Positions 18,414-20,946 of a stretch of DNA of 64,000 nucleotides are shown one piece after another. A program made the translations under genes and the position numbers. Source of the stretch: a virus; the IMG/VR virus record IMGVR_UViG_3300002461_001027, positions 8,637 through 72,636 of that record; one strand, given 5' to 3'. The notes under the pieces are model-generated. The model was not told the origin of the DNA and searched no databases. It was given only the letters and a program-made list of their open reading frames with translations. The stretch's first letter is position 1. Each line of letters opens with the position of its first letter.

Positions 18414-18658
18414 ACGTTCACCATGCTGGAGGCGGCGCGGATGGTCGCGCGCACCCGGTTGGTCCAGAGCACGCGCTCCGTCGTGCCCAGCTTCGTGAAC
18501 GTGCCGCCGGTCTCTTCCTCGTAGACCGCCGTCGCGATGCGCTCGACCAGCGGCTGGTTGTTGGTGAGCGCGACCATCACGGCCTTGAGGCCGAACTTCC
18601 CGGCGCCCATCGCGAGCGCGCCGAGGAGCTTGCCGGTGTTGCCGGGCAGGGCAGCCAT
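18410..18658 (-). CDS. hypothetical protein
   Basis: Coupled ORF with hydrophobic Gly-rich N-terminus. Confidence 0.55.
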   Translation of the reverse strand: MAALPGNTGKLLGALAMGAGKFGLKAVMVALTNNQPLVERIATAVYEEETGGTFTKLGTTERVLWTNRVRATIRAASSMVNV

Positions 18659-20946
18659 CAGCCGGTGACCTCGGGCTTGCCCGCCTGCACCGGGAGGTCG
18701 TTCAGCTCGACGACCGGGTTCGCCGCCGCCTTCTTGTTGCGGCGGCCGCGCTTCGGCGCCTCGGGCTCGGGCGCGGGCTCGGGCATCGGCATCGGGTCGT
18801 CTTCGCCCGGCTCGTCGTCCGTAGCCTCGGGGTCGAGACCGTCTTCGTCTTCGCCCTCTTCGGTGCCCTCCTCCTCGTCTTCCTCTTCGCCGTCGTGGCT
18901 GCCGCCGACGCGCACGGTGAGGTCCGGGTTCTGGCTGTTGTCCGACTCCTCCTCGTCCTCGGACTCGTCTTCGGACTCGTCGTCTTCGACCTCGTCCTCG
19001 TTGCCGTCCGTCTCCTCGTCGGCCGCGAGCAGCTCTTCGGCCGAGACGTCGTCGACGACCATGCCCGGGTTGTTCGCCGCGAGCTTGGCCATGACCGACT
19101 TCGCGATGGACACGGTGACCTGCGGCGTCGCGTGCTGCCCGTAGCCGAGGTGCGTGAGCACCTGCCGCAGGACGATGGCGAACTCCTCGCCCTTGCCCTG
19201 CTTGAGGAGCCCCGACAGGCGCTCGGCGACCTTCGCGGTCTCCGGGACCTGCACGAGCACCTTGAGCCAGTCGTACGTGGCGACGGCCTGCGTCTCAGCG
19301 GTCGTCGCGCTGAGGAGCGCGACGCTTGCGTCGACGAGCGGGCGCGGCAGGGCCGTCGTCCGGGAGGCCGACTGAGTCGTCGACGGGTTCGAGTGCTGGG
19401 GCGCGGGCTGCCCGCTCTTGAGCGCGGCCAGACCGTTCAGCACCTTCTCGACCGCCTCCGCGAAGGGCGCCGGGTTCGCGAACGCCTTCTCGATCACCCC
19501 ACCGAGCGCCGAGGACAGGGTCGTGGAGGGCCGGGCGCTCGCCGTCGGGTCCACGAGGTTGAAAAGCTCCTTGGCCACCTTGACCTCTTCGAGGACGCCA
19601 GCGAGCCCGCCCTTCTTCGTCTCCGACAGCTGCTTGCGCAGGTCGTGCAGCTGCTCTTCGAGCGGCGACACGTCGATGTTGACGTTCGCGGGCGCGAACA
19701 TCGACTTCGCCTGCCCGAGCATGGCGAAGACGTCCGTGAGCGTCTGCTGCGGGGGCGGCGGAGCCACGGGCGCAGGGCGCGTCATCTCCATGAGCACCTT
19801 GAGCATGCCGAGCATGTCCGGCTGCTGCGGCTGCTGCGGCGGCGCGACCGGCGCCGGGGGCGGCGTCATGACGCGCTCAGCGAGCGCGGTGACGGTGCTC
19901 GCGAGCTGGCCGAGCGTGCGCCGCATGTCCTCCATCTCGCTGCTGTGCTGCGTCGGCGCCGCGCTGGCGGGCACGATGCGCTCCGTCAGCCGGGTCTCGA
20001 TGGCCGCACGCTCCTCCTCGCGCGCCCGGCGGTCGATGCTGAGCACCTCGGCGATTTCCTCGCGCGAGCTGGCGACCGGCGCCATCGGCATCGGCAGCGC
20101 CACGGCACCAGCGACCGGCGCCGGAACGGACGTCATCGGCGCCACGGTGACGGTCATGCGGCGCTTCTCCGTCTCGCCGCCGCGCGTGTCGACGGCCGAC
20201 ACGACGAACGTCACGTCGCCCGTGATGCCCTGCGTCGCGACCTTGGGGCCGACCTCGCGCACGAGGAAGGGCTCGACCGCGCCGAAGAGCTGCACGCGGT
20301 CCAGCGGGAAGTCGTTGATGAAGACCGGGTCTTCGCCGGTCTCGCGCTCACGGCGCACGCGGAGCTTCCACCCGTTGCCCGCCGACGGGAAGATGGAGGC
20401 GAGCGGGTTCTGCGCCTCGCGCTTCGGCTGCTGCGGCCGGGGCGGCGGGGGCTGCGGCGGCGGCACCGAGACAGGCAGCGACGTCGTGGGCTGGTACTGG
20501 TGGGTGTTCACCGACGGCACCGGGTTCTCGTTGAGGCCGGGGTCCGCCAGCTGGGTCACGTCCGTGTTGCTCATGCTCGGCTCCTTCGTCTTCTTGGCTT
20601 CGGGGGTTTCGATGCGGGGGAGCCGCAGCGTCTTCGGCACGGCGATGCCGTTCAGCTGCAGCCAGTTGATGAACTTGTTGACCGCGCTGACGCGCACGCG
20701 GAGCTGGATGGCCTGCTTGAGTACGGACTGCTGCGTCTGAAGCCAGTCGACCTCAATGAAGTCGTCCGGCAGCGTCGTGAGGTCGCGCCCGGCGGCGGCA
20801 GCGACGAAGCCCTCGACCGCGCGCCGGAAGCTGCTGATGGTCTGCGGTGAGCGCGGCCTCTGCCGCCCCGGGGGAATCTCGCCCTGCGCGAACGAGATGT
20901 AGGCGTGCCCCAGCGTCTGAAGGTCTGTGACGGCGGTAGGAGTCAT
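18658..20946 (-). CDS. 762-aa multidomain protein: N-terminal integrase SAM-like (core-binding) helical domain, Pro-rich linkers, acidic C-terminus
   Basis: SPQTISSFRRAVEGF...DWL...IQLRVRVSAVNKFINWL resembles tyrosine-recombinase N-terminal SAM-like domains; no catalytic R-H-R-H/W-Y domain seen. Confidence 0.55.
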   Translation of the reverse strand: MTPTAVTDLQTLGHAYISFAQGEIPPGRQRPRSPQTISSFRRAVEGFVAAAAGRDLTTLPDDFIEVDWLQTQQSVLKQAIQLRVRVSAVNKFINWLQLNGIAVPKTLRLPRIETPEAKKTKEPSMSNTDVTQLADPGLNENPVPSVNTHQYQPTTSLPVSVPPPQPPPPRPQQPKREAQNPLASIFPSAGNGWKLRVRRERETGEDPVFINDFPLDRVQLFGAVEPFLVREVGPKVATQGITGDVTFVVSAVDTRGGETEKRRMTVTVAPMTSVPAPVAGAVALPMPMAPVASSREEIAEVLSIDRRAREEERAAIETRLTERIVPASAAPTQHSSEMEDMRRTLGQLASTVTALAERVMTPPPAPVAPPQQPQQPDMLGMLKVLMEMTRPAPVAPPPPQQTLTDVFAMLGQAKSMFAPANVNIDVSPLEEQLHDLRKQLSETKKGGLAGVLEEVKVAKELFNLVDPTASARPSTTLSSALGGVIEKAFANPAPFAEAVEKVLNGLAALKSGQPAPQHSNPSTTQSASRTTALPRPLVDASVALLSATTAETQAVATYDWLKVLVQVPETAKVAERLSGLLKQGKGEEFAIVLRQVLTHLGYGQHATPQVTVSIAKSVMAKLAANNPGMVVDDVSAEELLAADEETDGNEDEVEDDESEDESEDEEESDNSQNPDLTVRVGGSHDGEEEDEEEGTEEGEDEDGLDPEATDDEPGEDDPMPMPEPAPEPEAPKRGRRNKKAAANPVVELNDLPVQAGKPEVTG

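Follow-up and report, generated by a model that had tools for sequence, protein, structure and literature searches.

The gene at positions 18658–20946 of a 64,000-nucleotide stretch of viral DNA (hereafter the window; positions 8637–72636 of IMG/VR record IMGVR_UViG_3300002461_001027) encodes a 762-residue protein, P0001. Its N-terminal head has the fold of an integrase core-binding (CB) domain, no catalytic domain accompanies it in any family member tested, and the gene lies in an order that is kept among metagenomic relatives. We consider P0001 to be a non-catalytic DNA binder derived from a tyrosine recombinase, serving as a tether or scaffold that links DNA to components of the particle or of its assembly, a reading to which we give about an even chance. 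Under this proposal P0001 would descend from the DNA-binding module of a tyrosine recombinase, with catalysis lost; the basic, Xer-type CB head most likely grips double-stranded viral DNA through its helices 2 and 4, the other ~650 residues most likely form a flexible tether or scaffold between the bound DNA and particle or assembly components, and the protein would be present in or at the assembling particle. As there is no catalytic domain, P0001 should be unable to cut or join DNA, and the tether or scaffold role is suggested by the grouping of its gene with genes for membrane proteins and capsid-like proteins. The window is part of a 103,895-bp genome with a 94-bp end overlap and direct terminal repeats (IMG/VR record), and this genome is that of an uncultured 104-kb bacterial virus. 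The gene and its head are located as follows.

18658–20946, minus strand: gene for the 762-residue protein P0001 (open reading frame and translation, third-position G+C content (GC3) 0.94, homologues).
20647–20925, minus strand: core-binding (SAM-like) domain of Xer/integrase type, basic, residues 8–100 (AlphaFold2 (AF2), VIA, Foldseek, ESM Atlas, PF02899).

The gene had been proposed from the letters alone, and it is real: its frame has a GC3 of 0.94 and its homologues share a like layout. Long antisense open reading frames (ORFs) fail the codon-position test, as shadows expected in DNA of 67% GC. A word-indexed search returned 30 homologues of 708–1028 residues with 32–44% identity, all of them metagenomic and none annotated. 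Profile searching with HMMER, run exhaustively over 1.84 billion representatives, yielded 62 proteins at E≤1e-3, of which 30 reached E≤1e-30; the family comes to ~60 metagenomic relatives counted at 50% clustering. One layout is common to the aligned homologues, and hidden Markov models (HMMs) built as sub-profiles for each block recover it in distant members of 770–930 residues. Among cultured phages there was no match for P0001 (tblastn) or for its 6-kb surroundings (window 17000–23000, megablast), and scans of IMG/VR and GTDB for relatives found none.

The sequence-only reading had described a helical N-terminal domain of about 110 residues resembling the core-binding domain of integrases, and structure prediction bears this out. 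The AF2 model of residues 1–120, made with the family alignment, has a mean predicted local distance difference test (pLDDT) of 90.8 and a predicted template modelling score (pTM) of 0.84, with four helices at residues 9–22, 34–50, 63–75 and 79–98. When this model was compared by VIA, run without a Foldseek prefilter, with 48,161 representative solved chains, ranks 1–22 were all N-terminal or CB domains of tyrosine recombinases or of proteins derived from these (Z 9.9–6.0; root-mean-square deviation 2.6–5.2 over 89–111 aligned residues), and the first unrelated chain appeared at Z 6.0. The best matches were 3nrw (Z 9.9), XerD 1a0p (Z 9.3) and lambda Int 1z1b (Z 8.9), with XerA, XerH, IntI4, Brujita Int, MrpR and SroF also among the top 22. 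Foldseek put the same entries on top with weak E-values (0.058). Further, an independent ESM Atlas model of P0001 has integrase clusters as structural neighbours (template modelling (TM) score by query 0.61–0.75), and among named feature clusters those closest to it are Phage_int_SAM families.

At the level of sequence, PF02899 was the sole family matched repeatedly, by 11 of 31 members at E≤1 (best E 0.0058). Searched against the six frames of the whole genome, PF02899 gave exactly two matches, the resident integrase (19.5 bits) and P0001 (17.6 bits, E 3.9e-4, residues 29–97); in a separate search P0001 scored 13.6 bits. The domain is basic (isoelectric point (pI) 10.25, net charge +5), a property that extends to 50 diverse members (mean net charge +4.3). 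In the same 50 members, T36, R41, R42, G46 and F47 of helix 2 and Q81, R85, F92 and W95 of helix 4 are conserved at 80–96%, with T36, R41, R42 and R85 at 84–94%. In Cre, XerD and lambda Int, helices 2 and 4 are those that enter the major groove. Taken together, the CB fold, the basic pI and the near-invariant arginines in helices 2 and 4 make the head of P0001, as modelled, an integrase core-binding-type domain and a plausible DNA binder.

That P0001 carries no catalytic domain, as the sequence-only reading also held, is borne out by PF00589, the family of the C-terminal catalytic domain with its R-K-H-R-H/W-Y active site, which matched neither P0001 nor any of the 30 homologues and 10 distant members; as a positive control, the resident integrase was detected by phrog_1 (E 7.9e-43) and by PF00589. 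A degenerate catalytic domain hidden behind the CB domain was ruled out, as the region is beta-rich and compact and is then followed by linkers. The remainder of the protein is made up of the following parts.

20392–20646, minus strand: Pro/Gln-rich linker ending in a conserved NPLA..P motif, residues 101–185 (composition, block conservation, alignment).
20131–20391, minus strand: compact alpha/beta domain of four strands and two helices, the most conserved part, residues 186–272 (AF2).
19072–20061, minus strand: three conserved blocks (residues 296–362, 400–512 and 535–625, within residues 296–625) with Pro-rich linkers between them and an invariant NVNIDVSPLEE.
18757–19026, minus strand: hyper-acidic tail, net charge −45, residues 641–730 (composition).
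18901–18927, minus strand: PDLTVRVGG motif inside the acidic tail, with D675, R679, V680 and G681 invariant (alignment).
18730–18753, minus strand: basic C-terminal patch KRGRRNKK, family consensus KPRRKRRTKAEM (translation, alignment).

The Pro/Gln-rich linkers and the very acidic tail were thus rightly noted from the sequence. In the AF2 model of residues 170–285 the core of the alpha/beta domain exceeds a pLDDT of 90 and shows a four-stranded sheet with two helices, a folded unit of ~85 residues. Its fold had no convincing match (VIA Z 5.9 at best; Foldseek E 0.066 in the PDB and 0.017 in BFVD), and matches to fibronectin type III (FN3)/immunoglobulin (Ig)-like and RbcS-like folds were dismissed as noise (Z≤5.9, Foldseek E≥0.017). 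For residues 186–640 the ESM Atlas returned nothing above 0.89, with TM≤0.27. Oligomerisation, suggested from the sequence alone, stays a conjecture: apart from the CB domain, a crude heptad scan gave a single short stretch, residues 332–361, as a coiled-coil candidate. P0001 as a membrane protein was ruled out: it has no transmembrane segment, and the maximum Kyte-Doolittle mean over 19 residues is 1.49.

As to the placement of the gene, metagenomic relatives keep the order g137, g152, P0001, g82, transglutaminase-like gene, with g258, g252 and the capsid-like g215 further downstream, and the leftward block as a whole encodes two beta-rich capsid-like proteins of ~215 residues as well as a number of predicted membrane proteins. 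The earlier statement that P0001 sits just upstream of the structural module fits this conserved synteny with genes for membrane proteins and for beta-rich, putatively capsid-like ones; among the virus proteins there was no match to the capsid, portal or terminase PHROG families. The leftward unit around P0001 runs from a weak promoter-like site (23283–23255) to a strong terminator-like hairpin (15065–15032), and the position of the gene between the two suggests that P0001 is co-expressed with the membrane and basic proteins of this morphogenesis-like block.

The same position, together with an overall pI of 4.7, Pro-rich linkers and long stretches modelled with low confidence, would also suit a pure scaffold or structural protein, which templates capsid or membrane assembly, or determines size or cements in a large tailless particle, and whose CB head makes contacts with protein rather than DNA. 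The conserved basic C-terminal patch can be likened to the coat-binding end of the P22 scaffolding protein. The head, however, is basic and conserves arginines in the two helices that touch DNA in recombinases, a pattern not easily accounted for unless the head binds nucleic acid, and we regard a purely structural role as improbable.

As to what the head might bind, the start codon of P0001 does lie in a perfect palindrome, as had been pointed out.

20939–20952, no strand assigned: perfect 14-bp palindrome GGAGTCATGACTCC, centred on the P0001 start codon.

Near-copies with at most two mismatches number 31 in the window against 0.18 expected, an enrichment of ~170-fold. The genome carries 71 AGTCRYGACT cores with a mean spacing of 1462 bp and a coefficient of variation (CV) of 0.44, and 59 of the 71 have at their centre the first codon of an ORF of at least 50 residues. 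The palindrome at 20939–20952 being one of these 71, the start site is not particular to the P0001 gene. Further, none of the homologue start codons in L004, L005, L008 and L009 (four of the six short metagenome loci, L004–L009, that made up our comparison set) lies within a palindrome. The suggestion that P0001 is autoregulated through the palindrome at its start is accordingly unsupported. In L005 palindromes occur at 1463, 1733 and 2726, within the homologous gene and not at its start, and such sites fit a spacing constraint on the DNA rather than a start-codon function.

An array so enriched and so regularly spaced (71 sites per genome) needs some reader, and the palindrome is the obvious candidate target of P0001. 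A CB domain that specifically recognised the 71 evenly spaced AGTCRYGACT sites would allow the protein to mark, loop or condense the genome; CB domains do read inverted-repeat core sites (PMC3367168). Gene and motif occur together in L005 (six palindromes in 8.9 kb), L007 (eight in 10.9 kb), L008 and L009, all motif-rich. No motif-rich relative without the gene was found in IMG/VR, where none of the 62 contigs with the exact 14-mer was itself motif-rich. Moreover, L006 (JFJP01019432.1), which has the gene and not one AGTCRYGACT in 6 kb, encodes a homologue (4502–6022, P0030-type, 1028 residues) with E41, L42 and S83 in place of R41, R42 and R83. It is a single case of motif loss alongside loss of CB arginines.

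The co-occurrence proposed as a check on this pairing thus appeared in four loci, was weak in L004 and was absent from L006. L004 keeps K41, R42 and R85 in its homologue, yet its 5.8 kb contain just two sites, one canonical and one variant; a variant palindrome in the motif-poor relatives was considered and rejected, as there is a single GAGCCATGGCTC in L004 and nothing repeated in L006. More generally, only six short loci could be compared, and every gene in these relatives is found alongside the motif, which makes the co-occurrence unspecific, and nothing ties the CB domain of P0001 to the palindrome more than any other gene of the virus group. Other candidate binders, two ParB-like proteins among them, are encoded by the virus and could serve as readers, the geometry of the site is unlike that of known core sites, and the location of 59 of the 71 sites at ORF starts makes a role in translation or transcription conceivable as well. 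We therefore take the palindrome as target of P0001 to be a possibility only, and specific reading of the array by its head to be a doubtful though not negligible prospect.

The 110-residue domain and the 12-bp site nevertheless form a concrete candidate reader pair for an otherwise unexplained genome-wide array. If P0001 binds the palindrome, this raises the prospect of dispersed signals for DNA packaging or organization in membrane-containing phages; if it does not, the search turns to the ParB-like proteins and other binders. In the most far-reaching version P0001 would be a genome-wide packaging or condensation adaptor, with a CB head on each site about every 1.5 kb and a tail by which the DNA of a large tailless virus is attached to its inner membrane or capsid, so that the circular genome is selected and folded for encapsidation. 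We consider this unlikely; were it true, the packaging code would be dispersed along the DNA and its reader derived from a recombinase.

The preference of the palindromes for gene starts, in both divergent gene blocks, also raises the question of a transcription regulator comparable to FliZ, a CB-only global repressor: the CB domain would bind promoter- or start-proximal sites and switch gene classes, with the tail recruiting or blocking factors. P0001 is, however, far bigger than FliZ (183 residues) or than stand-alone CB proteins (79–120 residues), its gene lies among membrane and capsid-like genes and not among early or regulatory ones, and relatives have no counterpart of the palindrome at its start. 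Such a regulator seems to us hardly probable.

Returning to P0001 as a recombinase-derived DNA binder that acts as tether or scaffold, several observations weigh against it. The ESM model of the whole protein is poor (pTM 0.23). P0001 scores below the PF02899 gathering threshold of 22.3 bits, as does the genuine resident integrase, so that membership by formal sequence score is lacking and membership by fold is present. Sequence and profile searches of the PDB with P0001 found no recombinase and no convincing match. A Z of ~10 for a small helical bundle falls where VIA's own note warns of common arrangements; the CB assignment rests on the 22 consecutive matches to one family together with the sequence signal. 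When a 50-sequence CB alignment was compared by hhalign with the N-domain of 120 integrase homologues, the result was not significant (probability <1%), with the reservation that the reference, the resident integrase family, is itself a weak PF02899 member and no fair test of the superfamily. Canonical CB domains clamp DNA jointly with the catalytic domain, on arms of 11–13 bp around a spacer of 6–8 bp, and a spacer-less 12-bp palindrome is unlike that geometry. Finally, the role at the particle or in its assembly is deduced from gene position.

A recent copy of the resident integrase as the source of the head was ruled out by the hhalign result and by BLASTP, in which P0001 and that integrase met at E 0.18, and the 62 profile matches among 1.84 billion proteins include no integrase. 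These two findings together suggest that the exaptation of the CB module, as judged from sequence comparison, is old and family-wide.

Other features of the region and of the genome are listed below.

12337–12984, minus strand (L007:6828–7472; L005:8313–8849): beta-rich 215-residue protein, followed by a strong terminator-like hairpin at 12285–12253.
39694–42324 and 51010–53814, plus strand: SNF2-type helicase split by an intein with an HNH endonuclease; fusion of a family A DNA polymerase and a uracil-DNA-glycosylase-like (UDG) part.
Genome 84661–85962 (L002:12162–13460), plus strand: complete 433-residue tyrosine integrase (PF00589).

The beta-rich 215-residue protein is 92% identical in relatives, compared with 35–60% for neighbouring genes, which is unusually strong for the virus group. 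In the same block a strongly basic 258-residue protein (15074–15850, minus strand) ends in KRFKRRSKK, is 40% conserved in relatives and is adjoined by the 14-pair terminator-like hairpin at 15065–15032. The leftward block opens with the gene for a 195-residue protein (22164–22751, minus strand) with Lys/Ala-rich, histone-H1-like repeats (AAKKAAAEKKKADAKAAKEAAAA), which is another DNA-condensing candidate. Two genes downstream of P0001 lies the gene for a membrane-anchored transglutaminase-like protein (17165–18094, minus strand), 61–62% identical in relatives, which reaches 22.5 bits with PF01841, just below the cut-off, and has an apparent Cys–His–Asp arrangement, with the Cys in GDCDDY and the His in WSHIY. 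A role as protease or cross-linker of particle proteins is conceivable; that the invariant VRVGG in the tail of P0001 is a processing site is pure speculation. Like P0001, the capsid-like g215 and the transglutaminase-like gene had no match among cultured phages.

The virus further encodes a DUF927 primase-like protein, a PD-(D/E)XK nuclease, an endonuclease VII, and peptidoglycan-binding and SLT proteins. Apart from the complete integrase, the virus has the look of a lytic or tailless one; a homologue of the integrase with 87% identity lies on a metagenome contig of 23.7 kb, and the GTDB representative genomes yielded no integrated relative.

To our knowledge, integrase CB domains are normally seen solely as the front half of a recombinase. 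With the Xer-type domains (XerD 1a0p, XerA 5hxy, XerH 5jjv, lambda Int 1z1b and the N-domain of Haloarcula tnp, 3nrw; PF02899) P0001 shares the four- to five-helix fold of ~90–110 residues (Z 8.2–9.9), the helix-2 signature T..(Y/F)RR.(L/V)EGF and an arginine-bearing helix 4, with PF02899 matches that are weak but repeated. It differs from these recombinases in that no catalytic domain follows and in that its Pfam scores stay below the cut-off; to the N-domain of its own virus's integrase there is no detectable relation. MrpR of SPbeta (8a0a, Z 6.8) and SroF of Phi3T (9rd5, Z 7.2), which also stand among the fold matches, are recombinase-derived phage DNA-binding proteins whose chains of 317–320 residues are as long as a full recombinase; P0001 retains the CB part alone.

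CB proteins that lack a catalytic domain are already known. FliZ of E. coli has an integrase-type CB region without a recombinase domain and binds DNA sequence-specifically, and helix 2, the DNA-binding helix of integrase-family CB domains, matches one of the two helices by which Cre contacts DNA (PMC3367168). The likeness of P0001 to FliZ, which we draw by description, lies in a CB-like domain without a catalytic one. FliZ, however, is a soluble regulator of 183 residues with its CB-like part in the C-terminal half (PMC3367168), whereas P0001 is viral, 762 residues long, and has its CB domain at the N-terminus, together with an acidic tail and four other conserved modules. In the rhizobial Nop type III effectors and in HsvG and HsvB of Pantoea agglomerans, CB units form arrays (SU1) of one to six copies; they are most similar to XerD and IntI4, never occur with a catalytic domain and are joined to other modules, and in HsvG/HsvB the CB array is where DNA binding has been mapped, with activation domains elsewhere (PMC13667924). 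These effectors are secreted and act in plant cells; P0001, by contrast, has a single CB domain, unrelated partner modules and a morphogenesis-like operon. In addition, the ESM Atlas holds clusters of bacterial stand-alone CB proteins of 79–120 residues. What is new in P0001 is an orphan CB head in a large, multi-modular, acidic viral protein encoded among particle genes, and on the reading that we favour its family would be a third independent reuse of the CB domain, after FliZ and the type III effectors, and the first in the context of virus morphogenesis.

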